Shown here: positions 85 to 28,394 of the stretch, piece after piece
How the letters are laid out: every line of letters begins with the position of its first letter
Numbering within the stretch: the stretch's first letter is position 1
Origin: Escherichia phage EP01
Length of the DNA stretch: 64,000 nucleotides
Strand: one strand, 5' to 3'
Sequence record: OM135583.1
Notes under the pieces: generated by a model
Seen by the model: the letters and a program-made list of their open reading frames with translations, nothing else
What the model was told of the DNA's origin: nothing
The model's database searches: none
Program-made: the position numbers and the translations under genes

Positions 85-2064
85 ATGACTTTATTATCTC
101 CGGGCATTGAGCTCAAAGAAACTACGGTTCAAAGCACCGTGGTTAATAACTCTACTGGTACAGCAGCTTTGGCCGGTAAATTCCAGTGGGGTCCTGCTTT
201 TCAGATCAAACAGGTTACAAATGAAGTAGATTTAGTTAATACTTTTGGTCAACCTACAGCTGAAACTGCTGACTATTTTATGTCTGCAATGAATTTCTTA
301 CAATATGGAAATGATTTGCGAGTTGTGCGTGCTGTCGATAGAGATACCGCTAAAAACTCATCTCCGATTGCTGGTAATATTGAATACACTATTTCTACCC
401 CAGGTAGTAACTACGCGGTTGGAGATAAAATCACAGTTAAGTATGTTTCAGAAGACATTGAAACGGAAGGTAAAATTACCGAAGTAGATGCTGATGGAAA
501 AATTAAGAAAATTAATATTCCTACTGCAAAAATTATCGCTAAAGCGAAAGAAGTTGGTGAATATCCAGCATTAGGTTCTAACTGGACCGCGGAAATTTCT
601 TCGTCTTCCTCTGGTTTAGCTGCAGTAATAACTCTTGGAAAAATTATTACTGATTCTGGTATTTTATTAGCTGAAATTGAAAATGCCGAAGCTGCTATGA
701 CAGCGGTTGAATTTCAAACAAATCTCGAAAAATATGGAATTCCAGGAGTAGTAGCTCTTTATCCGGGCGAGTTGGGCGATAAAATCGAAATTGAAATCGT
801 ATCTAAAGCTGACTACGCAAAAGGTGCTTCTGCATTACTCCCAATTTATCCAGGTGGCGGGACACGTGCATCTACTGCCAAAGCAGTGTTTGGATATGGA
901 CCACAAACTGATTCGCAATACGCTATTATAGTTCGTCGTAATGATGCTATTGTTCAAAGCGTTGTTCTTTCAACAAAGCGTGGTGAAAAAGATATTTACG
1001 ATAGTAACATCTACATTGATGACTTTTTCGCAAAAGGCGGTTCAGAATATATTTTCGCAACTGCACAAAATTGGCCAGAAGGATTCTCTGGAATTTTAAC
1101 TCTGTCTGGTGGATTATCATCAAATGCTGAAGTAACAGCAGGAGATTTGATGGAAGCTTGGGACTTCTTTGCTGACCGCGAATCTGTTGACGTTCAGTTG
1201 TTTATTGCGGGTTCTTGTGCCGGTGAATCTTTAGAAACAGCATCTACTGTCCAAAAACACGTCGTTTCAATTGGGGATGCTCGTCAAGATTGCTTAGTAT
1301 TATGCTCACCACCACGTGAAACTGTAGTTGGAATTCCTGTAACTCGCGCTGTTGATAACTTAGTCAATTGGAGAACTGCAACAGGTTCATACACTGATAA
1401 TAACTTTAATATCAGTTCAACCTACGCAGCAATTGATGGTAACTACAAATATCAGTATGACAAATATAATGATGTCAATCGCTGGGTTCCATTAGCAGCT
1501 GATATTGCAGGTTTATGCGCAAGAACCGATAACGTTTCTCAGACTTGGATGTCTCCAGCTGGTTATAATCGTGGCCAGATTCTTAACGTTATTAAACTTG
1601 CTATTGAAACTCGCCAGGCGCAGCGCGACCGTTTATACCAAGAAGCTATCAACCCGGTAACCGGTACAGGTGGTGATGGTTACGTATTATATGGTGATAA
1701 AACAGCTACTTCTGTTCCTTCTCCATTTGATCGTATTAACGTTCGTCGTCTGTTTAATATGTTGAAAACGAATATCGGACGTAGTTCAAAATATCGTTTG
1801 TTCGAATTAAACAACGCGTTTACTCGTTCATCATTCCGCACAGAAACTGCCCAATACTTGCAGGGAATTAAAGCTCTCGGTGGAATTTATGAATATCGTG
1901 TAGTTTGCGATACAACAAATAACACTCCGTCAGTAATTGATAGAAATGAGTTTGTTGCAACATTCTACATCCAACCGGCTAGAAGCATTAACTACATTAC
2001 CTTGAACTTCGTAGCAACTGCTACAGGTGCAGATTTCGATGAGTTAACTGGTCTTGCAGGTTAA
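85..2064 (+). CDS. 18: contractile tail sheath protein, 659 aa
   Basis: Length and sequence match remembered T4 gp18; AGAGGA SD upstream of ATG; TATAAATA at 49-56. Confidence 0.95.
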   Translation: MTLLSPGIELKETTVQSTVVNNSTGTAALAGKFQWGPAFQIKQVTNEVDLVNTFGQPTAETADYFMSAMNFLQYGNDLRVVRAVDRDTAKNSSPIAGNIEYTISTPGSNYAVGDKITVKYVSEDIETEGKITEVDADGKIKKINIPTAKIIAKAKEVGEYPALGSNWTAEISSSSSGLAAVITLGKIITDSGILLAEIENAEAAMTAVEFQTNLEKYGIPGVVALYPGELGDKIEIEIVSKADYAKGASALLPIYPGGGTRASTAKAVFGYGPQTDSQYAIIVRRNDAIVQSVVLSTKRGEKDIYDSNIYIDDFFAKGGSEYIFATAQNWPEGFSGILTLSGGLSSNAEVTAGDLMEAWDFFADRESVDVQLFIAGSCAGESLETASTVQKHVVSIGDARQDCLVLCSPPRETVVGIPVTRAVDNLVNWRTATGSYTDNNFNISSTYAAIDGNYKYQYDKYNDVNRWVPLAADIAGLCARTDNVSQTWMSPAGYNRGQILNVIKLAIETRQAQRDRLYQEAINPVTGTGGDGYVLYGDKTATSVPSPFDRINVRRLFNMLKTNIGRSSKYRLFELNNAFTRSSFRTETAQYLQGIKALGGIYEYRVVCDTTNNTPSVIDRNEFVATFYIQPARSINYITLNFVATATGADFDELTGLAG

Positions 2065-2080
2065 TACGGTGCATTCTAAA

Positions 2081-2098
2081 GGCCTGTTTCGGCAGGCC
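2081..2098 (+). terminator. hairpin after gene 18
   Basis: GGCCTG, 6-nt loop, CAGGCC, 17 nt past stop. Confidence 0.5.
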
Positions 2099-2099
2099 A

Positions 2100-2107
2100 T
2101 ATAAATA
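2100..2107 (+). promoter_or_regulatory. late promoter TATAAATA, distal, gene 19
   Basis: Exact 8-mer just after gene 18 terminator hairpin. Confidence 0.55.
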
Positions 2108-2158
2108 CACTATATCCTTAATTCTTTAATTCTATATGCCCTAGGTTAAACATAGGGA

Positions 2159-2166
2159 TATAAATA
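2159..2166 (+). promoter_or_regulatory. late promoter TATAAATA, proximal, gene 19
   Basis: Exact 8-mer 15 nt upstream of ATG. Confidence 0.6.
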
Positions 2167-2180
2167 CTACAGAGGCTAAT

Positions 2181-2672
2181 ATGTTTGTAGATGATGTAAC
2201 ACGAGCGTTTGAATCTGGTGATTTTGCTCGACCTAACTTATTCCAAGTAGAAATTTCTTATCTTGGACAAAATTTTACGTTTCAATGTAAAGCCACTGCT
2301 TTACCAGCTGGTATTGTAGAAAAAATTCCAGTCGGATTTATGAACCGTAAAATTAACGTAGCAGGCGATCGTACATTCGATGACTGGACTATTACAGTAA
2401 TGAATGATGAGGCGCATGATGCACGTCAGAAGTTTGTTGACTGGCAAAGCATTGCTGCTGGGCAAGGAAACGAAATTACTGGTGGAAAACCAGCAGAGTA
2501 TAAAAAGAGTGCTATTGTACGCCAATATGCTCGTGACGCTAAAACTGTAACAAAAGAAGTCGAAATTAAAGGCCTGTGGCCTACTAACGTGGGTGAACTT
2601 CAGTTAGATTGGGATTCAAACAATGAAATCCAAACCTTTGAAGTAACTCTCGCTCTCGATTATTGGGAATAA
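2181..2672 (+). CDS. 19: tail tube protein, 163 aa
   Basis: Size and position after sheath gene; matches T4 gp19; two TATAAATA motifs upstream. Confidence 0.93.
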   Translation: MFVDDVTRAFESGDFARPNLFQVEISYLGQNFTFQCKATALPAGIVEKIPVGFMNRKINVAGDRTFDDWTITVMNDEAHDARQKFVDWQSIAAGQGNEITGGKPAEYKKSAIVRQYARDAKTVTKEVEIKGLWPTNVGELQLDWDSNNEIQTFEVTLALDYWE

Positions 2673-2677
2673 AATGA

Positions 2678-2695
2678 ATGGGGAGAAATCCCCAT
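2678..2695 (+). terminator. hairpin after gene 19
   Basis: ATGGGGA, GAAA loop, TCCCCAT. Confidence 0.5.
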
Positions 2696-2704
2696 CCTGC
2701 TTAA

Positions 2705-4329
<1,625 letters not shown>

Positions 4330-4330
<1 letters not shown>

Positions 4331-4572
4331 TGGAAGGTTTAATTGAAGCTATTAAATCAAACGACCTCGTAGCCGCTCGTAAATTATTTGCTGAAGCCAT
4401 GGCTGCAAGAACGATTGATTTAATTAAAGAAGAAAAAATCGCTATCGCCCGTAATTTCTTAATCGAAGGTGAAGAACCTGAAGACGAGGATGATGACGAA
4501 GATGGTGATGATAAAGACGACAAAAAAGACAAAGACTCTGACGAAGATGACGAAGACGAGGATGATGAATAA
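4330..4572 (+). CDS. 67: prohead core protein with poly-acidic C-terminal tail, 80 aa
   Basis: ATGA-type junction with gene 20; D/E-rich tail; size and position as T4 gp67. Confidence 0.85.
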
Positions 4573-4997
4573 TGCTTCTGATCCCTGAAACTCATGAATT
4601 AGTTCTCGAGAATGTCGAAGCACTTATTCCTGAAGCACAGGGTCGCTTTGACGAATTGTCTTCTGCTTTAAATAAAGACGATATAAATACAATTATCGAG
4701 AATATGCTTGATGATGAAACTGATTTAGCAGTTGCATTAGCTTCTATTAATGAAAATATGCCGTTAAATGAATTCATTGTTAAGCATGTTTCAGCTCGTG
4801 GTGAAATTACACGTACTAAAGACCGCAAAACACGCGAACGTAATGCATTTCAAACCACCGGGCTGTCTAAAGCAAAACGTAGACAAATTGCTCGCAAAGC
4901 TACCAAAACGAAGATTGCCAATCCAGCAGGTCAATCTCGTGCTCAGCGTAAGCGTAAAAAAGCTCTTAAACGCCGTAAAGCATTAGGATTAAGCTAA
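4572..4997 (+). CDS. 68: prohead core protein, 141 aa
   Basis: Overlapping junctions with 67 and 21; basic C-terminus; size as T4 gp68. Confidence 0.85.
4682..4689 (+). promoter_or_regulatory. possible internal late promoter TATAAATA inside gene 68
   Basis: Exact 8-mer ~300 nt upstream of gene 21; could be chance in AT-rich DNA. Confidence 0.3.
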
Positions 4998-5635
4998 TGA
5001 ATGAACCCCAATTACTAATTGAAACTTGGGGTCAACCTGGCGAAATTATTGATGGTGTGCCAATGCTTGAATCCCACGATGGAAAAGACTTAGGTTTAAA
5101 ACCGGGTTTATACATCGAAGGAATATTCATGCAAGCAGAAGTCGTCAATAGAAATAAACGTCTTTATCCAAAACGCATATTAGAAAAAGCGGTAAAAGAC
5201 TATATTAATGAGCAAGTTTTAACTAAACAGGCTCTCGGAGAATTAAATCATCCTCCACGCGCTAATGTTGACCCGATGCAAGCCGCTATCATTATAGAAG
5301 ATATGTGGTGGAAAGGAAATGACGTATACGGACGAGCTCGTGTTATTGAAGGTGACCACGGTCCTGGAGATAAATTAGCAGCTAATATTCGTGCCGGATG
5401 GATTCCAGGAGTTTCTTCTCGTGGATTAGGTTCATTGACTGACACAAATAAAGGTTATCGTATCGTAAACGAAGGATTCAAATTAACTGTAGGTGTTGAT
5501 GCAGTATGGGGTCCAAGTGCTCCAGATGCATGGGTAACTCCTAAGGAAATTACCGAATCACAGACGGCGGAAGCCGATACAAGTGCCGATGACGCCTATA
5601 TGGCTCTCGCAGAGGCCATGAAAAAAGCGTTATAA
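4997..5635 (+). CDS. 21: prohead core protease, 212 aa
   Basis: Size and synteny match T4 gp21. Confidence 0.92.
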   Translation: MNEPQLLIETWGQPGEIIDGVPMLESHDGKDLGLKPGLYIEGIFMQAEVVNRNKRLYPKRILEKAVKDYINEQVLTKQALGELNHPPRANVDPMQAAIIIEDMWWKGNDVYGRARVIEGDHGPGDKLAANIRAGWIPGVSSRGLGSLTDTNKGYRIVNEGFKLTVGVDAVWGPSAPDAWVTPKEITESQTAEADTSADDAYMALAEAMKKAL

Positions 5636-5638
5636 ATA
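5631..5638 (+). promoter_or_regulatory. late promoter TATAAATA for gene 22
   Basis: Exact 8-mer 28 nt upstream of ATG. Confidence 0.65.
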
Positions 5639-5665
5639 TTATTATCTAAACAACAGGACTACAAA

Positions 5666-6475
5666 ATGCTTAAAGAACAACTGATTGCTGAAGCGCAAAA
5701 AATTGATGCTTCCGTTGCTCTTGATAGTATTTTCGAATCAGTTAATATTTCTCCGGAAGCAAAAGAAACTTTCGGCACTGTATTCGAAGCTACCGTCAAG
5801 CAGCACGCCGTTAAATTAGCTGAATCTCATATCGCTAAAATTGCTGAAAAAGCAGAAGAAGAAGTAGAAAAAAATAAAGAAGAAGCCGAAGAAAAAGCTG
5901 AGAAGAAAATCGCTGAGCAAGCTTCTAAATTCATCGACCATCTTGCGAAAGAATGGCTCGCTGAAAATAAATTAGCAGTTGATAAAGGCATCAAAGCCGA
6001 ACTGTTTGAATCCATGCTTGGTGGATTAAAAGAGCTCTTTGTTGAACACAACGTTGTTGTTCCAGAAGAATCAGTTGATGTTGTGGCTGAAATGGAAGAA
6101 GAGCTGCAAGAACATAAAGAAGAATCAGCTCGTCTGTTCGAAGAACTCAATATGCGCGACGCATATATCAATTATGTGCAGCGTGAAGTGGCATTGAGCG
6201 AAAGTACTAAAGATCTGACTGAGTCTCAAAAAGAAAAAGTCTCTGCTCTGGTCGAAGGTATGGATTATTCAGATGAATTCTCAAATAAATTGAGTGCCAT
6301 CGTAGAAATGGTGAAGAAGTCTAATAAAGATGAAAGCACTATTACTGAGGGTATAAATACTCCTGATACTGAAGCAGCCGGACTGAATTTCGTCACTGAA
6401 GCTGTAGAAGATAAAACTGCACCTGGTGCAGAAGATATTGTAAGTGTATATGCGAAAGTCGCATCTCGTTTCTAA
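5666..6475 (+). CDS. 22: prohead core scaffold protein, 269 aa
   Basis: E/K-rich coiled-coil-like protein; size and position as T4 gp22; TATAAATA at 5631-5638. Confidence 0.92.
   Translation: MLKEQLIAEAQKIDASVALDSIFESVNISPEAKETFGTVFEATVKQHAVKLAESHIAKIAEKAEEEVEKNKEEAEEKAEKKIAEQASKFIDHLAKEWLAENKLAVDKGIKAELFESMLGGLKELFVEHNVVVPEESVDVVAEMEEELQEHKEESARLFEELNMRDAYINYVQREVALSESTKDLTESQKEKVSALVEGMDYSDEFSNKLSAIVEMVKKSNKDESTITEGINTPDTEAAGLNFVTEAVEDKTAPGAEDIVSVYAKVASRF
6352..6359 (+). promoter_or_regulatory. late promoter TATAAATA for gene 23, inside gene 22
   Basis: Exact 8-mer 135 nt upstream of gene 23 ATG. Confidence 0.6.
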
Positions 6476-6493
6476 TTTTAAAGGTTAACACAA

Positions 6494-8059
6494 ATGACTA
6501 TCAAAACTAAAGCTGAACTTTTGAACAAATGGAAGCCATTACTGGAAGGTGAAGGTTTACCGGAAATTGCTAATAGCAAACAAGCGATTATCGCTAAAAT
6601 CTTTGAAAACCAGGAAAAAGATTTCCAGACAGCTCCAGAGTACAAAGACGAAAAAATCGCTCAGGCGTTCGGTTCTTTCTTAACAGAAGCTGAAATCGGT
6701 GGTGACCACGGTTACAATGCTACTAACATCGCTGCAGGTCAGACTTCTGGCGCAGTAACTCAGATTGGCCCAGCTGTTATGGGTATGGTACGTCGTGCTA
6801 TTCCTAACCTGATTGCTTTCGATATTTGCGGTGTTCAGCCGATGAATAGCCCGACCGGTCAGGTATTCGCACTGCGCGCAGTATATGGTAAAGACCCAAT
6901 CGCTTCCGGCGCTAAAGAAGCATTCCACCCAATGTATGGTCCAGATGCAATGTTCTCTGGTCAGGGTGCTGCTAAGAAATTCGCTGCTTTGAAAGCAAGT
7001 GATACTCTTGAAGTTGGAACTATTTACACCCACTTCTTCCAGGACACTGGTACTGTGTATCTGCAAGCTACAGAAGCTAAACAAATTGATTCCGCTGCAT
7101 CTGACGCAGACAAATTAGATGCTGAAATTAAGAAACAAATGGAAGCTGGTGTACTGGTAGAAATCGCTGAAGGTATGGCTACTTCTATCGCTGAACTTCA
7201 GGAAAGTTTCAACGGTTCTACCGATAACCCATGGAATGAAATGGGCTTCCGTATCGATAAACAAGTTATCGAAGCTAAATCTCGCCAGCTGAAAGCTGCT
7301 TACTCTATCGAATTAGCACAAGACCTCCGCGCTGTTCACGGTATGGATGCTGATGCTGAACTGTCTGGTATTCTGGCTACCGAAATCATGCTGGAAATTA
7401 ACCGTGAAGTTGTTGATTGGATTAACTACTCAGCTCAGGTTGGTAAATCTGGTATGACCCTGACTCCAGGTTCTAAAGCTGGTGTATTTGACTTCCAGGA
7501 TCCGATTGATATTCGTGGTGCTCGCTGGGCGGGTGAATCCTTTAAAGCTCTGCTGTTCCAGATTGACAAAGAAGCAGTTGAAATTGCTCGTCAGACCGGT
7601 CGTGGTGAAGGTAACTTCATTATCGCTTCCCGTAACGTAGTTAACGTTCTGGCTTCAGTTGATACTGGCATTTCTTATGCTGCACAGGGTCTGGCCACCG
7701 GCTTTAACACTGATACTACCAAGTCAGTATTTGCTGGTGTTCTGGGTGGTAAATACCGTGTATATATCGACCAGTATGCTAAACAGGATTATTTCACCGT
7801 AGGTTATAAAGGTCCGAACGAAATGGATGCAGGTATTTACTATGCTCCATATGTAGCTCTGACTCCGCTGCGTGGTTCCGATCCGAAGAACTTCCAACCA
7901 GTAATGGGATTCAAAACTCGTTACGGTATCGGTATCAACCCATTTGCAGAATCCGCTGCTCAGGCTCCGGCTTCTCGCATCCAGAGCGGTATGCCTTCTA
8001 TTCTGAATAGCCTTGGTAAAAACGCTTACTTCCGCCGTGTATATGTTAAAGGTATCTAA
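6494..8059 (+). CDS. 23: major capsid protein, 521 aa
   Basis: N-terminus MTIKTKAELLNKWKPLLEGEG and length match T4 gp23; high-expression codon usage; UUCG hairpin terminator follows. Confidence 0.97.
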   Translation: MTIKTKAELLNKWKPLLEGEGLPEIANSKQAIIAKIFENQEKDFQTAPEYKDEKIAQAFGSFLTEAEIGGDHGYNATNIAAGQTSGAVTQIGPAVMGMVRRAIPNLIAFDICGVQPMNSPTGQVFALRAVYGKDPIASGAKEAFHPMYGPDAMFSGQGAAKKFAALKASDTLEVGTIYTHFFQDTGTVYLQATEAKQIDSAASDADKLDAEIKKQMEAGVLVEIAEGMATSIAELQESFNGSTDNPWNEMGFRIDKQVIEAKSRQLKAAYSIELAQDLRAVHGMDADAELSGILATEIMLEINREVVDWINYSAQVGKSGMTLTPGSKAGVFDFQDPIDIRGARWAGESFKALLFQIDKEAVEIARQTGRGEGNFIIASRNVVNVLASVDTGISYAAQGLATGFNTDTTKSVFAGVLGGKYRVYIDQYAKQDYFTVGYKGPNEMDAGIYYAPYVALTPLRGSDPKNFQPVMGFKTRYGIGINPFAESAAQAPASRIQSGMPSILNSLGKNAYFRRVYVKGI

Positions 8060-8073
8060 GATATAACCTTATT

Positions 8074-8095
8074 ATGGGAGACTTCGGTCTCCCAT
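8074..8095 (+). terminator. hairpin with UUCG tetraloop after gene 23
   Basis: GGGAGAC, TTCG loop, GTCTCCC, then T-rich tract. Confidence 0.7.
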
Positions 8096-8108
8096 TCTTG
8101 TTTCTATA

Positions 8109-8375
8109 CTACGCAATCTTAACTCGACGGTTGATGATGTCACGGAAGTCAATACGATTTTCTTGGATTTTCAGCCAGTTACCAGATTTGTCTTTGGTAT
8201 GGGTAGAATATTCACCGTTCCACCAGAAGTCAGTAGCATAAGCCATGGTTTCATATTTCTTAACTAGGGCATTCACTGCATTACCGTTAGGATTGGAACC
8301 ATATTTTTCTACCAGGGCTTTGATGTCTTTATCAAGAGCGGACAGAGTAGTACGAATAAAGTTTAACTTGTTCAT
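8109..8375 (-). CDS. hypothetical protein, 88 aa, opposite strand between genes 23 and 24
   Basis: Track ORF 93 aa; internal ATG at 8375 is preceded by GAGGAGA SD at 7 nt; sigma70-like promoter upstream on minus strand; no recognisable motif. Confidence 0.45.
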   Translation of the reverse strand: MNKLNFIRTTLSALDKDIKALVEKYGSNPNGNAVNALVKKYETMAYATDFWWNGEYSTHTKDKSGNWLKIQENRIDFRDIINRRVKIA

Positions 8376-8405
8376 TTTTAATCTCCTCATGTTTTTGATA
8401 GGTCT

Positions 8406-8434
8406 ATAGTAACATGTGATAACCTTGCTGTAAA
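8406..8434 (-). promoter_or_regulatory. sigma70-type early promoter for the 88-aa ORF
   Basis: Minus strand TTTACA, 17-nt spacer ending TGT, TACTAT. Confidence 0.5.
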
Positions 8435-8441
8435 CAACTTT

Positions 8442-8449
8442 TATAAATA
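8442..8449 (+). promoter_or_regulatory. late promoter TATAAATA for gene 24
   Basis: Exact 8-mer 29 nt upstream of ATG. Confidence 0.65.
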
Positions 8450-8477
8450 AACATATACTCTCAACAAGGAAAGCGCA

Positions 8478-9761
8478 ATGGCTAAAATCAACGAACTTCT
8501 GCGCGAATCAACCACAACGAATAGCAACTCAATCGGTCGCCCAAATCTCGTTGCTTTGACTCGCGCTACCACTAAATTAATATATTCTGACATTGTAGCA
8601 ACGCAAAGAACTAATCAACCTGTTGCTGCTTTTTATGGTATCAAATACCTTAACCCAGATAATGAATTTACATTTAAAACTGGTGCTACTTACGCTGGCG
8701 AAGCTGGATATGTAGACCGAGAACAAATCACAGAATTAACAGAAGAGTCTAAATTAACTCTCAATAAAGGCGATTTATTCAAATATAATAATATCGTTTA
8801 TAAAGTATTAGAAGATACACCATTTGCTACCATTGAAGAAAGCGATTTAGAATTAGCTCTTCAGATTGCAATTGTTCTTTTAAAGGTTCGCCTATTTTCT
8901 GACGCAGCGTCAACAAGCAAATTTGAAAGCTCTGATAGCGAAATTGCTGATGCTAGATTCCAGATTAATAAATGGCAAACCGCAGTTAAATCTCGTAAAC
9001 TTAAAACTGGTATCACAGTTGAATTAGCACAAGATTTAGAAGCAAATGGATTCGATGCTCCTAATTTCTTGGAAGATTTGCTTGCAACTGAAATGGCGGA
9101 TGAAATCAATAAAGATATTCTACAGTCTTTGATTACAGTATCAAAACGCTATAAAGTTACAGGAATTACTGATACCGGATTCATTGATTTGAGTTATGCA
9201 TCTGCACCTGAAGCTGGTCGTTCATTATACCGAATGGTATGTGAAATGGTTTCGCATATCCAAAAAGAATCAACTTATACAGCAACGTTCTGCGTTGCTT
9301 CAGCTCGTGCCGCTGCGATTCTTGCTGCATCAGGTTGGTTAAAACATAAACCAGAAGATGATAAATATCTTTCACAAAATGCCTACGGGTTCTTAGCTAA
9401 TGGTTTACCGCTTTATTGCGATACTAACAGCCCATTAGATTATGTAATCGTTGGCGTGGTAGAAAATATTGGCGAAAAAGAAATTGTTGGATCAATTTTC
9501 TATGCCCCGTATACAGAAGGTCTGGACTTAGATGACCCTGAACATGTAGGTGCATTTAAAGTTGTAGTTGATCCAGAAAGTTTGCAGCCATCTATTGGTT
9601 TATTAGTTAGATATGCTTTATCTGCAAATCCTTACACTGTAGCAAAAGATGAAAAAGAAGCAAGAATAATTGATGGTGGAGACATGGATAAAATGGCGGG
9701 TCGTTCAGATTTGTCTGTTTTATTAGGTGTTAAGCTACCAAAAATTATCGTTGATGAATAA
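8478..9761 (+). CDS. 24: head vertex protein, 427 aa
   Basis: Size and sequence as T4 gp24; TATAAATA at 8442-8449. Confidence 0.94.
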   Translation: MAKINELLRESTTTNSNSIGRPNLVALTRATTKLIYSDIVATQRTNQPVAAFYGIKYLNPDNEFTFKTGATYAGEAGYVDREQITELTEESKLTLNKGDLFKYNNIVYKVLEDTPFATIEESDLELALQIAIVLLKVRLFSDAASTSKFESSDSEIADARFQINKWQTAVKSRKLKTGITVELAQDLEANGFDAPNFLEDLLATEMADEINKDILQSLITVSKRYKVTGITDTGFIDLSYASAPEAGRSLYRMVCEMVSHIQKESTYTATFCVASARAAAILAASGWLKHKPEDDKYLSQNAYGFLANGLPLYCDTNSPLDYVIVGVVENIGEKEIVGSIFYAPYTEGLDLDDPEHVGAFKVVVDPESLQPSIGLLVRYALSANPYTVAKDEKEARIIDGGDMDKMAGRSDLSVLLGVKLPKIIVDE

Positions 9762-23619: not shown

Positions 23620-23623
23620 CAAT

Positions 23624-23641
23624 GGGGACCTTTCGGTCCCC
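23624..23641. terminator. bidirectional hairpin between convergent gene 54 and the 96-aa gene
   Basis: GGGGACC, TTTC loop, GGTCCCC, then ATATTTTTA. Confidence 0.65.
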
Positions 23642-23647
23642 ATATTT

Positions 23648-23938
23648 TTATTTACGGAATGAAATAAAAGCAGCAACTGAAGCAACTAAACTGTCTTCAA
23701 TATAAACTTCAATTTTTACCGGAGCTTCTGATTCAAATTTACCTGTTACTACACCATGGAAAATGCTTTCAGTCTGTTCTGGCTTTGAAAAATTTTCAGA
23801 AGGAAAAATTCCGAACTTTTTATCTGTTCCAAAAATTTTGATAAATTCATCGTAAACTGCTTCATTAAAAGCGTTATCAGCAGGAATAACGCCTTCAACT
23901 ACAAGTTCTTGACCTAAAAAGCGTAAAGAAGATTTCAT
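23648..23938 (-). CDS. hypothetical protein, 96 aa (position of T4 alt.-3)
   Basis: GAGGAA SD 6 nt upstream; early promoter cassette upstream. Confidence 0.6.
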   Translation of the reverse strand: MKSSLRFLGQELVVEGVIPADNAFNEAVYDEFIKIFGTDKKFGIFPSENFSKPEQTESIFHGVVTGKFESEAPVKIEVYIEDSLVASVAAFISFRK

Positions 23939-23946
23939 TTTGTGTT

Positions 23947-23999
23947 CCTCATGTTATGTCAGTAAGATTATTATAACACAACACGAGGGACTTGTAAAC
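23947..23999 (-). promoter_or_regulatory. early promoter plus leader cassette, copy 1, upstream of the 96-aa gene
   Basis: Minus strand GTTTACA, 17-nt spacer, TGT-TATAAT, leader with GAGGAA SD; 49/53 identical to copy at 39103-39155. Confidence 0.6.
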
Positions 24000-26056
24000 T
24001 ACATTTTGAACTTTTTAGACATTCCGTTGATGTTAATCAAAGAAGCCAAGATTTGAGAAACTTCGTTTTCCTCTTCTTTTGATTCTTCTACAAGGAATTG
24101 ATTAAATCCAGCCATTGGACGAACTTCACCAGTTTCCATCAGGTGGTCGCCATCATATACCGATTCTTCTAATTGTTCAGAAGGAGGAACGATTGTGCCT
24201 TCGATTAGATACTTGTTATAAGCAGTTTCTTTCATCATGTACGTACTCACTTTATTAATCTTCAGCAAAATTCCACGTGGTAAAATAACTTCAGCTTCTG
24301 ATGGAAATCCTGATAAATGACCCGGAACGATAACTTTGATTCGCTCAGCTCCTTTAATTACCATACCCACGCTAGTTTCAGCATCTTCATTCGCATAAGC
24401 AGAGTGACTGCCCATATGCATCAAATCTTCTGCGTCAACTGAACCTTCTCCTTCACCAGAAAATACTGCACCGGAATCATCTAGAGCCATATAGTTTTTA
24501 CCATACTCACCGAAGATATTTGGTTTAAGCGATGTTGATACGAAGTTCTTGAAATAGAACATTCTATTTTCAATATTATGACGTAAAGTTTTAAAGGTAA
24601 CTTCTTGTCCACGGTAAAGTGTAGTTCCTGGAGGAAGAACTGATCCTTTGGCAAAGGCAGAATCCATTGTCTCGATGTGTTTAATAGCTCGTTCCATATA
24701 TTCTTCACGGGTAGAATCTGGTTTACCTAAAAGGAACGAGTTCATTTCAACATATGAATCTGCACAATAATCTTCAATTACATCAGACTCAGCCTGAGTT
24801 AATCCTTTTGGGGGTACTTCAGTACTTGCATATTCATACGCTTGAGAAGCAGACTCATTAATCAATTTATAAATGCCATTCATGACAAATTGAACAATAG
24901 CTACCTTTTCATCTGGCGTGGCTTTAGAACCTTTAACTAAATCATTGACGATTTTCTTAATAACATCAAAGCTATTAGAAATATTAATGTCAGCAAGATC
25001 GCTTAAAATTTTATCAGTTTTATAATCAAAAAATTCTTTATTCTTTAAATATTCTTGAGAACCTTGATATGTTATATCGCTCTGTAACTTGATAGATGGA
25101 TCACGTAAACGTGCATGAGCCAATGCAATATGATTTCGGAAGCTTTCTAGTTCATAATCATTAGATTTAAAACGAGAAGCACTTCTCATACCACCGATAG
25201 CTCCTTTGCTGAAGTTTGAACCAACCTGAATAACGCCAGAGTTCATTGGTCCTTCTGCTTTATATACTGGAACTTTAGATTCAAACTCTTGATATTTCTT
25301 AGCAGCGAAGCTATCACCCTGAAGTGAAGCATCGACAGTAGAATATTGAGCTTGTGCTGCTAATCGACGACTAATTTTAGTTTTCTGAATTACAGCTTGA
25401 TCCGTGCGCTTATCATTTTCTAAAGCAATAGAAGCAGCAACAGCAACAGCTTTAGGAACAGCATTACCTGTTTTAACGTCTACATAAACATCACCAACCT
25501 TTGATTCAACTTTTGTGAATAACTCAGTTGAAATAGGAGGTACACCTGGAATGTCTTCTAAATTGGCATTTTTACGGTAAACCATAATATATGCATATTT
25601 CTTATCATAGTCCCAGATTTCCTTTAAAAGAACATATCGACCTGCTCCTTTAGTACGCACTAAACGGTCGGCAATAACTTGCATTTGACGAGCAGCGCCA
25701 TTTGTTTTACTCTTTAATACGCGGAATAGGCATGCGTCAATTTTGTACTGTTTCATTGTTTGAAGAGCAGTATCAAAAACCGCATTAATGACACCAATTG
25801 GATTTCCACCCAAGTTTTTAAGTTTAACTAATGATAGTTTCTCGTTGACACCTATCATTACGATATGCATCATTTTATCGCCTGGCTTAACGTTTTTATT
25901 TGTATCACCACCAGAGGTGTATGTACAAAATCTAAATCCAGGAAGCACGCTTTCTTCACCGGCTTGAATAGCAAAAATTTGAGGTATTTTATGCTTAGGA
26001 TTTAAGTTAACAACCGGCGCCGAAGCGCCGTCAAATAATTCTGTAATAAGTTCCAT
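23999..26056 (-). CDS. Alt-like mono-ADP-ribosyltransferase paralogue, 685 aa
   Basis: N-terminus MELITELFD as in Alt; C-terminal YRGQ...FVSTSL...EAEVILPRG consistent with an R-S-E ART core; AAGGA SD. Confidence 0.85.
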   Translation of the reverse strand: MELITELFDGASAPVVNLNPKHKIPQIFAIQAGEESVLPGFRFCTYTSGGDTNKNVKPGDKMMHIVMIGVNEKLSLVKLKNLGGNPIGVINAVFDTALQTMKQYKIDACLFRVLKSKTNGAARQMQVIADRLVRTKGAGRYVLLKEIWDYDKKYAYIMVYRKNANLEDIPGVPPISTELFTKVESKVGDVYVDVKTGNAVPKAVAVAASIALENDKRTDQAVIQKTKISRRLAAQAQYSTVDASLQGDSFAAKKYQEFESKVPVYKAEGPMNSGVIQVGSNFSKGAIGGMRSASRFKSNDYELESFRNHIALAHARLRDPSIKLQSDITYQGSQEYLKNKEFFDYKTDKILSDLADINISNSFDVIKKIVNDLVKGSKATPDEKVAIVQFVMNGIYKLINESASQAYEYASTEVPPKGLTQAESDVIEDYCADSYVEMNSFLLGKPDSTREEYMERAIKHIETMDSAFAKGSVLPPGTTLYRGQEVTFKTLRHNIENRMFYFKNFVSTSLKPNIFGEYGKNYMALDDSGAVFSGEGEGSVDAEDLMHMGSHSAYANEDAETSVGMVIKGAERIKVIVPGHLSGFPSEAEVILPRGILLKINKVSTYMMKETAYNKYLIEGTIVPPSEQLEESVYDGDHLMETGEVRPMAGFNQFLVEESKEEENEVSQILASLININGMSKKFKM

Positions 26057-26059
26057 GAT

Positions 26060-28153
26060 TTATCCTTGAACGAACTTGTAAGGCATGTTTGTAATATCTA
26101 TGCAAGACGCAATAATTCCGAGAGATGATTCTGCTTTCTGTTTAACATTTGATGAAACAAATGATGCAAAGTCAACTCTGTCTTCTATTTCAATATCACC
26201 TGTCATTGCAACTACTTCACCGGTTTCCATTAGACGGTCACCGTCATAAATGACTGATTCGGTGAGTTCTTCCGTAGTCATAACTTCAGCTTGAATGAGT
26301 TTTGTGTTATTAGATGTTGTTCCGTCATTATTAGAAGCATCAGTTATTTTATTAACTTTGACCATCAATCCGCGTGGTAGAATTACTTCAGCTTCTGTTG
26401 CTATTCCGAGACTCCCTGGATATACAACATTAACTTTATGAGCTCCATCAATTGCCCATCCTATTTGAACTTTAACGTATTCAGGATTTTCTTTATACGC
26501 TCTTATTTCGTTCGGATTAATAGTTATTCCTTCTTCATTTTTATCAACTGTTAATTCATTACGAGCTTCTGGTTCTAAAAGACCGATACCAGCATGTGTA
26601 ATTCCAAAACGTCCAAAAATGATAGGAGTTAAAGAAGTAGATACAAAATTTCTGAAATAGAACACTTTATTTTTAACTAGTGCTTCGTATATAGGAGCAG
26701 TCATACTTTGAGCACGATAAACTGTAATGCCTTCTGGTATACGGTCACCATTTTCAAAAGCTGAATCTAAATTATTTATCGCAGATTCAATTTCTTTTTC
26801 ACTCATTACATCATATCGTTCTGGATTGTAGCGGCCTAAAAGAAGATTATTGATGTCAGTATATCCTGATCCACAATATTCTCTAATGCCGCGCTTTTGC
26901 GATGGAGTATATTTAGAACCATCACGTGCAATGGTAATATCAATCATTGGACCTGCACCAATTCCAGAAAAGCTGTAAATCATTCTTTTGAGGAATTTAG
27001 TTTTTGCTGCGTTCCAGGAATTTTTAGTTATTTCTTCCCAGACTTCATCTGGCTGTCCTTTACGGGTTTTATTATGTTTATCAAGCCAAGTATCTTTATA
27101 TTCTTCAAAGAATTTATTAATAGCTGCTGCATACTTCTCTAAACATTTTATTGAAGTAGTTGGTTCATTTTTAATCGCATTAAGAATTACATCTTTAATT
27201 TTTTCAGAAACTTCATTAACCTCACTTTTTGAAAAGAATTTATAATCATAGTGAAGTTCATCTGCAGTTCCTTCGGCAATAATTTTTGCTGCTTTAGTTT
27301 TAGAAGCTAATGAATTAATTCCAAGTTTCATTTCTTCTGCTTCAGGAATTAAAGGAGCTGTAGCAGGTTTATTGAAATTAGCTGCGGTAGATTCATACTT
27401 CTGAAATAATTCATTTTCAAATCTAGAAGATTCTAATGATTGACTTTGCGCAATTGCTCTACGGGAAATTTTAACTTTAACGATTACAGCTTGGTCAGAA
27501 CGTTTATCATTTTCTTGCGCAATAGATGCTGCAATTGCCTCATTTTTAGTTACTTGGGCTCCAGTATCTTTATTGATATAAACATCGCCGACCTTCGATT
27601 CAACTTTAGTAAAGAGCTCGGTACTAATTTCCGGAACTCCTGGAATGTCTTCTAGTGATACATTTTTGCGATGTATAAGAATATATGCATACTTTTTATC
27701 GTAATCCCAGAGTTCCTTAAGAAGGACGTATCTGCCACCTGAACGACTACGGATAAGTCTATCAGCAATAACTTGAATTTGTCGAGCTTGGCCAGCAGTT
27801 TTAGACTTAAGAATACGAAGCATGCAGGCATCAATTTTATACTGACGCATCGTTTGCATCGCAACAGTAAAAACTGAATTGATGTAATTAATTGGGCTTG
27901 GACCGAGACCTTTCAATTTAGCAATTGAACCTTTAGCAGTTAATGTAAAAGGAACAATGTGCATCATTTTATCGCCCATCTTTAGATCACGGTTAGTATC
28001 ACCTCCAGATGTATAGGTACATAAACGAAAGCCTGGTTGTTCAATTGCGTCATCAACATGAACTGAAAAAATTTGCGGTATTTTCTTCTTTGGATTTAAG
28101 TTTGTAATCGGAAGAGTAGTATCTTCGTCAAATAATTCTGTAATGAGTTCCAT
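26060..28153 (-). CDS. alt: ADP-ribosyltransferase Alt, 697 aa
   Basis: N-terminus MELITELFDEDTTLPITNLNPKKKIPQIF matches remembered T4 Alt; adjacent to gene 30; second ATG chosen on SD spacing; late promoter 20 nt upstream. Confidence 0.85.
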   Translation of the reverse strand: MELITELFDEDTTLPITNLNPKKKIPQIFSVHVDDAIEQPGFRLCTYTSGGDTNRDLKMGDKMMHIVPFTLTAKGSIAKLKGLGPSPINYINSVFTVAMQTMRQYKIDACMLRILKSKTAGQARQIQVIADRLIRSRSGGRYVLLKELWDYDKKYAYILIHRKNVSLEDIPGVPEISTELFTKVESKVGDVYINKDTGAQVTKNEAIAASIAQENDKRSDQAVIVKVKISRRAIAQSQSLESSRFENELFQKYESTAANFNKPATAPLIPEAEEMKLGINSLASKTKAAKIIAEGTADELHYDYKFFSKSEVNEVSEKIKDVILNAIKNEPTTSIKCLEKYAAAINKFFEEYKDTWLDKHNKTRKGQPDEVWEEITKNSWNAAKTKFLKRMIYSFSGIGAGPMIDITIARDGSKYTPSQKRGIREYCGSGYTDINNLLLGRYNPERYDVMSEKEIESAINNLDSAFENGDRIPEGITVYRAQSMTAPIYEALVKNKVFYFRNFVSTSLTPIIFGRFGITHAGIGLLEPEARNELTVDKNEEGITINPNEIRAYKENPEYVKVQIGWAIDGAHKVNVVYPGSLGIATEAEVILPRGLMVKVNKITDASNNDGTTSNNTKLIQAEVMTTEELTESVIYDGDRLMETGEVVAMTGDIEIEDRVDFASFVSSNVKQKAESSLGIIASCIDITNMPYKFVQG

Positions 28154-28176
28154 CATATCCTCTCTAGTGTTTATTC

Positions 28177-28184
28177 TATTTATA
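28177..28184 (-). promoter_or_regulatory. late promoter (TATAAATA on minus strand) for alt
   Basis: Plus-strand TATTTATA, 20 nt upstream of alt start. Confidence 0.6.
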
Positions 28185-28189
28185 AAATT

Positions 28190-28207
28190 AAAGGCCCGAA
28201 GGCCTTT
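28190..28207 (-). terminator. hairpin after the gene 30 operon, before the alt late promoter
   Basis: AAAGGCC, CGAA loop, GGCCTTT, overlapping the 62-aa ORF stop. Confidence 0.55.
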
Positions 28208-28394
28208 AATAATCTAATGGTAAGAGAGTACGATATATTTCAAACTTTGGACCTTTTTCATAGGCATCAAATGTTTCTGTGAATTTATTATAAGCATATG
28301 CATCTACAAATTCGAGAATGACTTGTGATACAGAAGTAGAAACATCTCCACCTTCTTTTTGAGCAATGACAATTGTTTCTAAGTAAGCTTTCAT
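28206..28394 (-). CDS. hypothetical protein, 62 aa
   Basis: ATG overlaps gene 30 stop (ATGA); hairpin terminator immediately downstream. Confidence 0.5.
   Translation of the reverse strand: MKAYLETIVIAQKEGGDVSTSVSQVILEFVDAYAYNKFTETFDAYEKGPKFEIYRTLLPLDY

Follow-up and report, generated by a model that had tools for sequence, protein, structure and literature searches.

The window analysed here is a 64,000-nucleotide (nt) stretch of DNA from Escherichia phage EP01 (record OM135583.1). Its minus strand carries two long open reading frames (ORFs) side by side, namely alt and a paralogue of 685 amino acids (aa), alt.-2 (Table 1). A first-pass annotation of the window had reported two adjacent, intact ORFs of 685 aa and 697 aa that both start with MELITELFD, and both were found where it had placed them; the first nine residues of the two proteins are identical. 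BLASTP aligned alt and alt.-2 at 41% identity (E = 3e-158). The identity was ~68% for residues 1–238, which make up the N-terminal domain (N-domain), ~15% for residues 239–410, and ~31% for the ADP-ribosyltransferase (ART) domain. The strong central divergence noted earlier was thus observed, but it was not confined to ~250 residues, as the ART domain has diverged as well. The phage belongs to Tequatrovirus (T4-like phages), and its alt locus has the complete, ancestral form. Both genes very probably encode Alt-family NAD+:arginine mono-ADP-ribosyltransferases, with alt.-2 being the full-length form of two gene stubs that are found in phage T4.

The family assignment was examined with profile and sequence searches. 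Pfam PF03496 (ADP-ribosyltransferase exoenzyme) matched both proteins (E = 1.6e-37 and 7.2e-20), and phrog_802 ('Alt-like RNA polymerase ADP-ribosyltransferase') matched them from end to end, over residues 1–685 of 685 and 1–696 of 697 (E-values for the two window proteins, 3e-272 and 9e-255). NCBIfam gave no match for alt or alt.-2. A PDB sequence search gave no match at E ≤ 0.01, so that a solved structure of Alt could not be detected on the basis of sequence. The signature that had been reported for the two proteins, YR[AG]Q, FVSTSL and EAEVILPRG, was borne out in both by alignment. Each contains an ART catalytic domain with an Arg, a Ser-Thr-Ser and a Glu-x-Glu: R480, S505-T-S507 and E587-A-E589 in alt, and R482 (24611–24613), S507-T-S509 (24530–24538) and E587-A-E589 (24290–24298) in alt.-2. 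Pairwise alignment against T4 showed that neither copy has lost a catalytic residue, and that T4 encodes no intact 685-aa protein.

Mutation of the corresponding second Glu, called E577 there, abolishes the activity of T4 Alt (PMC11404850). We infer that the published E577 is the second Glu of the ExE motif, E576 in RefSeq numbering, because alt starts with ATGATG and counting from the first ATG would add one. When counted in this manner, the alt ORF of the window spans 26060..28156 and has 698 aa; the second ATG, at 28153, gives the 697-aa protein and is the start used in the annotations of relatives. It may be noted that ATGATG is present at the alt start in the window (28151–28156, minus strand) and also in T4 (6501–6506 of the T4 locus).

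The full-length Alt architecture was also found. The alignment with T4 Alt (NP_049811, 682 aa) runs from end to end, and T4 Alt has the same architecture, ITE-6 and LxE motifs, late promoter and context as the window genes. The layout is visible in the AlphaFold2 model of alt.-2 (predicted local distance difference test, pLDDT, 75; predicted template modelling score, pTM, 0.66), which has an alpha/beta N-domain up to residue ~225, an all-helical part (~230–470), a beta-rich ART core (480–622) and a disordered tail (629–685). With T4 Alt, alt.-2 is 41% identical overall and ~8–35% identical in the effector part; the alt of the window is ~100% identical to it over residues 1–240, 15–50% over residues 241–400, and ~68% in the ART domain. 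R-S-E toxins of the C3/VIP2 type (Vis, C3bot, CPILE-a, Certhrax, iota/CDTa) have the catalytic fold and the R / S-T-S / E-x-E residues in common with the Alt proteins, at 13–25% identity, but they lack the phage head-targeting N-domain and the gp21 propeptides, and are secreted instead of being carried as virion cargo. As judged from the residues and the predicted fold, alt.-2 appears to be catalytically competent.

The ratio of non-synonymous to synonymous substitution rates (dN/dS) was calculated across nine phages. For alt.-2 it was 0.041 overall (N-domain, 0.014; centre, 0.090; ART, 0.033; C-terminal propeptide or C-propeptide, 0.038), and the pairwise differences comprised 2,633 synonymous and 442 non-synonymous ones. 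For alt, the ratio was 0.057. No indels or stops were found in the nine phages, the catalytic and cleavage motifs were invariant, and the length of alt.-2 was identical in all of them. Hence, alt.-2 is a functional protein-coding gene under strong purifying selection, as is alt. That alt.-2 might be a decaying or catalytically dead gene is suggested by T4 and ~90 other records, which keep only wrecks of it. For the gene in the window this explanation is effectively refuted, since the ORF is intact and of the same length in 9/9 loci and in ~400 records, and the invariant catalytic residues and the low dN/dS speak against it too.

In T4 (NC_000866), downstream of alt (682 aa) lie alt.-1 (61 aa), alt.-2 (67 aa) and alt.-3, so that the shorter ORFs named in the first-pass annotation do exist. 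In the T4 record, alt.-1 and alt.-2 are explained as an ancient copy of the beginning of alt. We found that the T4 stubs agree with the N-terminus of the window alt.-2 at nearly every residue, but not with the alt of T4 itself. Nucleotide alignment of the stubs with the 5' end of alt.-2 gave 96% identity over 411 nt, and that of the 3' flank gave 97%; the stubs correspond to the first ~117 codons of alt.-2, a few codons at its end, and the 3' flank. PHROG families derived from the T4 stubs scored 138/131 bits on alt.-2 vs 78/70 bits on alt, a difference of about 2-fold. What lies in between is missing from T4, and the junction falls on one of two imperfect direct repeats (Table 1). T4 has also lost 1 nt in an A-run, giving a −1 frameshift. 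These stub matches, the flank, the single deletion junction and the PHROG scores together indicate that what T4 carries is the ruin of a paralogue that was once full-length. By sequence comparison, therefore, T4 alt.-1 and alt.-2 are remnants of that gene and not a partial duplication of alt.

T4, SG1 and slur03 have an identical deletion junction, unlike their secondary lesions. A stop at codon 7 is found in SG1 and slur03, and the −1 frameshift in T4 and slur03, but not in SG1. Since the junction is common to the three phages while the second hits differ, the deletion came first and the decay later.

To see how widespread the intact gene is, the 1,690-nt segment without a counterpart in T4 was used as a nucleotide query at ≥90% identity. 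It was matched in 406 phage records, 401 of which had at least 80% of the segment; T2, RB68, wV7, Shfl2, phiD1 and PhiZZ30 are among those in which it is intact. An alt.-2 orthologue with at least 80% aa identity was found by tblastn in 402 records, and the 4.85-kb locus was matched over at least 80% of its length in 394 of the 543 records with any match. All eight loci that were fetched had the same layout (685 aa, 3-nt gap, 697 aa). The alt.-2 of RB14 (NC_012638), RB68, RB32/RB51, Shfl2, wV7, T2 and PP01 is the same gene (94–99% identity, 685 aa), at the same site between alt and alt.-3 and with the same 3-nt gap; nothing substantive differs, the best-matching record being 98–99%, not 100%, identical to the window alt.-2. 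The RefSeq name for both genes is 'Alt-like RNA polymerase ADP-ribosyltransferase', and the full-length gene is named alt.-2 in RB14, RB68 and in the notes of Shfl2. It is clear that an intact alt.-2 is the normal state of the genus, with about three-quarters of the sequenced relatives carrying it, and that the gene, being already catalogued and annotated in hundreds of genomes, is not new. The first-pass annotation had considered an intact second paralogue as a possible real difference. This holds with respect to T4, which has the stubs only, but not among the relatives (~400 records), for which it is ordinary.

The T4-type deletion junction was present in 91 of 499 records, which include T4 strains, RB55/RB59 and the natural isolates SG1, slur03 and VEc20. 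In Escherichia phage sutha, alt.-2 was lost separately, when the 3' ends of the two paralogues recombined. The gene is accessory, with at least two losses in the genus, one of them in the lineage to which T4 belongs. A 38-aa annotated stub of alt.-2 is kept in sutha (locus 6921–9184). The 697-aa allele of alt is the common form (333 records, including T2, RB3 and RB33). SG1 and slur03 have this allele together with the T4-type deletion; therefore, alt alleles and the alt.-2 deletion reassort.

The same tandem pair was found outside Tequatrovirus. Dhakavirus IME341 has ORFs of 694 and 707 aa with a 3-nt gap in the same context, while the examples examined from Mosigvirus, Jiaodavirus, Karamvirus and Lazarusvirus have a single alt copy. 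Outside Tequatrovirus, the nearest relative of the alt.-2 effector part (centre, 46%; ART, 55%; C-propeptide, 66%) is the downstream Alt of Dhakavirus (707 aa; IME341, JS10/KM16-type), which has the same position in an identical tandem arrangement. Its N-domain is 46% identical to that of alt.-2, and groups with the N-domains of Dhakavirus and Mosigvirus. When the proteins were compared domain by domain, the N-domains clustered by phage genus, that of the window alt being 68% identical to alt.-2, 99.6% to T4 alt and 42–46% to the Dhakavirus copies. The centre, the ART domain and the C-propeptide clustered by paralogue type; alt.-2 and the downstream copy of Dhakavirus were joined with a bootstrap of 100.

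The alt of the window is a chimera when compared with T4 alt (4455–6503 of the T4 locus). Codons 1–250 and 651–697 are 95–98% identical to it at the nucleotide level, and codons 251–650 are only 47–81% identical. Codons 401–650 are 84–91% identical in nucleotides to the upstream Alt of IME341 (locus 1913–3997; third positions, 64–80%), with the rest of this pair being near saturation. The ART domains of the two proteins are 95% identical in aa, vs 46% for their N-domains, which points to exchange of an ART module between genera. From these comparisons it appears that the N-domain follows the genus of the phage, and that the effector module follows the type of paralogue and is able to pass from one genus to another.

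A further arrangement was seen in the more distant Krischvirus GEC-3S (locus 2923–6359), in which two shorter ORFs, of 274 and 161 aa, come after alt. In tblastn, alt.-2 was matched in two joined pieces that cover alt and extend into the first of these ORFs (3001–5814). Together with a remark on RB49ORF183c (PMC1524935), the GEC-3S ORFs suggest another partial or decayed duplicate of alt.

As the first-pass annotation had noted, a late promoter lies upstream of the first copy and a 3-nt gap separates the two genes. The promoter, TATAAATA, is the only copy of this element on the minus strand of the locus, and T4 has it as well. The possibility of an internal promoter for alt.-2 was considered and rejected, as no late-promoter motif occurs between alt and alt.-2 and sigma-70-like matches were not enriched in the region (16 observed vs 18.3 expected from shuffles). 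We infer that TATAAATA drives a bicistronic alt/alt.-2 late transcript. An AAGGA Shine-Dalgarno sequence for alt.-2 sits within the 3' end of alt, and this, along with the 3-nt gap, makes translational coupling of the two genes likely.

Mass spectrometry of virions has shown that the prohead protease gp21 cuts T4 Alt after ITE-6 and LTE-619, leaving a 68.2-kDa protein that lacks 6 N-terminal and 63 C-terminal residues (PMC5694885). As a check of the method, the mass of mature T4 Alt was computed and was found to be the published 68.2 kDa. Motifs for gp21 are present at both ends of alt and alt.-2, at positions homologous to those of T4 Alt (Table 1). The predicted mature forms are of 70.2 kDa for alt, and of 625 aa and 69.1 kDa for alt.-2, for which the predicted C-propeptide of 54 aa corresponds to the part modelled as a disordered tail. 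An N-terminal region removed by the prohead protease had been proposed earlier; the motif is present, but by the T4 data (PMC5694885) the N-terminal loss is limited to six residues and is accompanied by a C-terminal one.

About 40 copies of T4 Alt are carried per head and are ejected with the DNA (PMC9026906). By homology with T4 Alt, both Alt proteins of the window are probably packaged and injected, and the conserved, genus-specific N-domain is probably the head-incorporation module. According to the mechanism that we propose, both proteins would be made late and enter the prohead core, where gp21 would trim them after ITE-6 and after the L-x-E at ~631. They would then ride in the head, be injected with the DNA and, ahead of any phage gene expression, modify host proteins by ADP-ribosylation of arginine. 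Alternatively, alt.-2 could be made late and remain unpackaged, acting in the producing cell or serving as a component of the head core with no injected role. Its C-propeptide and centre are unlike those of Alt, and packaging is not proven by sequence. Even so, we regard this alternative as improbable, because alt.-2 shares its first nine residues with Alt, has retained the two gp21 motifs at their positions, and would be co-transcribed with alt from the late promoter; moreover, its N-domain, at 68% identity, is the most constrained part (dN/dS 0.014).

The loops in the STS-ExE stretch set the substrate choice in C3/VIP2-type toxins. In the Alt proteins, the helical centre and the ART domain, with 15–31% identity between the paralogues, are by alignment the apparent effector module, and the best candidates for target choice are the helical centre, which is divergent, and the variable STS-ExE stretch. 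T4 Alt ADP-ribosylates the alpha subunit of E. coli RNA polymerase and other host proteins (PMC5512222; preprint 10.1101/2025.11.20.689424). It is also reported to relieve Mokosh type I defence, which the Alt of Tequatrovirus Bas37 does not (2025 preprint 10.1101/2025.11.20.689424); differences in the effector module of the Alt family therefore have phenotypes.

By sequence divergence and by analogy, alt and alt.-2 may differ in substrate or counter-defence spectra, and we somewhat favour this over redundancy. If alt.-2 were a redundant duplicate, it would have the same targets as Alt and would raise the dose of injected enzyme. The catalytic motif set, the N-domain architecture and the promoter are indeed common to the two genes, and alt.-2 has been lost repeatedly without loss of viability. 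Redundancy is nevertheless unlikely: the effector parts are just 15–31% identical, and even alt alleles are not interchangeable against Mokosh type I. Each paralogue type has also been kept across two genera at a dN/dS of ~0.04–0.06, and redundant copies would hardly last so long.

A more far-reaching reading, which we put forward tentatively and at somewhat less than even confidence, is that most natural T-even phages inject two different ARTs, T4 being a natural knock-out of the second. The Alt proteins would resemble polymorphic toxins, in which a genus-specific N-terminal head module is joined to one of two ancient effector types that are occasionally swapped. In this scheme alt.-2 would act on host targets of its own, and a defence system could be among them, much as Mokosh type I and MazF are for T4 Alt.

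Several points weigh against the main explanation, namely a second Alt enzyme that is packaged, injected and perhaps different in its targets. The searchable literature gave no direct evidence of the alt.-2 protein being present in virions, cleaved, injected or active. The proposal of different targets comes only from sequence divergence and from the analogy with the target loops of C3/VIP2-type toxins. The AlphaFold2 model of alt.-2 was built on a shallow alignment of 20 sequences, since a profile-based homologue search gave only more close Tequatrovirus Alt variants. Finally, alt.-2 is dispensable in T4, SG1, slur03 and sutha, and because of this its contribution may be small or host-specific.

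Duplication of alt in tandem was already described for T4-like phages in 2006 (PMC1524935). In the literature searched, this comparative-genomics remark was all that was found on alt.-2; no functional, proteomic or other experimental work came up, and papers of proteomic appearance made no mention of Alt. The observation is real but ordinary and already catalogued, and is of modest interest as an unstudied fourth ART. ADP-ribosylation of the host by phages is known almost wholly from T4 (Alt, ModA, ModB), which is without this fourth enzyme. If alt.-2 has its own targets, the T4-based picture of host take-over and counter-defence is incomplete for most T-even phages, including many therapy phages. 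The value of the present result is as a pointer to an easily testable enzyme and not as a discovery, as a specialist would find the gene neither new nor unexpected.

Table 1. Positions of the genes, signals, motifs and deletion endpoints at the alt locus of the window
Feature	Position	Strand	Remarks
alt	26060..28153	-	697 aa; N-domain 1-238, helical centre, ART domain, C-propeptide after LTE-632
alt.-2 (second Alt paralogue)	23999..26056	-	685 aa
Intergenic gap, 3 nt	26057..26059	-	alt/alt.-2 junction TAA ATC ATG
T4-type late promoter TATAAATA	28177-28184	-	23 nt upstream of alt ATG
ITE-6 of alt	28136-28144	-	gp21 prohead-protease motif
LTE-632 of alt	26258-26266	-	gp21 prohead-protease motif, C-terminal
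ITE-6 of alt.-2	26039-26047	-	gp21 prohead-protease motif
LEE-631 of alt.-2	24164-24172	-	gp21 prohead-protease motif, C-terminal
Segment missing from T4, SG1, slur03	24019..25717	-	1,699 bp, single deletion
Imperfect 9-nt direct repeats bounding the deletion	TTAAAGAGT 25709-25717; CTAAAAAGT 24010-24018	-	Junction on repeat
GC-rich hairpin AAAGGCCTTCGGGCCTTT	28190..28207	-	Between alt.1 and late promoter; read directly from sequence; probable terminator
Bidirectional hairpin terminator	23622..23643	both	Between alt.-3 and gene 54
Sigma-70-type promoter, extended -10 (TG)	23970..23998	-	TTTACA-17-TGTTATAAT, -10 TATAAT; 11/12 matches
alt.-3	23648-23938	-	96 aa, DUF5498, function unassigned
alt.1	28206-28394	-	62 aa; Pfam PF24647 'Phage blade protein', E = 1.9e-29

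The gene order around the pair (DNA ligase/alt.1 – alt – alt.-2 – alt.-3/gene 54) is the same in T4 and eight other phages. The GC-rich hairpin AAAGGCCTTCGGGCCTTT is probably the terminator of the upstream unit; the consensus scan did not flag it. The stop codon of alt.1 showed no overlap, and the hairpin before the alt late promoter comes next. At the other end, the bidirectional hairpin beyond alt.-3 is likely to be the 3' end of the late alt/alt.-2 transcript. The strong, near-consensus sigma-70-type promoter with the extended −10 begins directly after the alt.-2 stop and serves alt.-3. In one record (SF2-1), alt.-3 is labelled as a dsDNA-binding protein, with the evidence for the label not stated.

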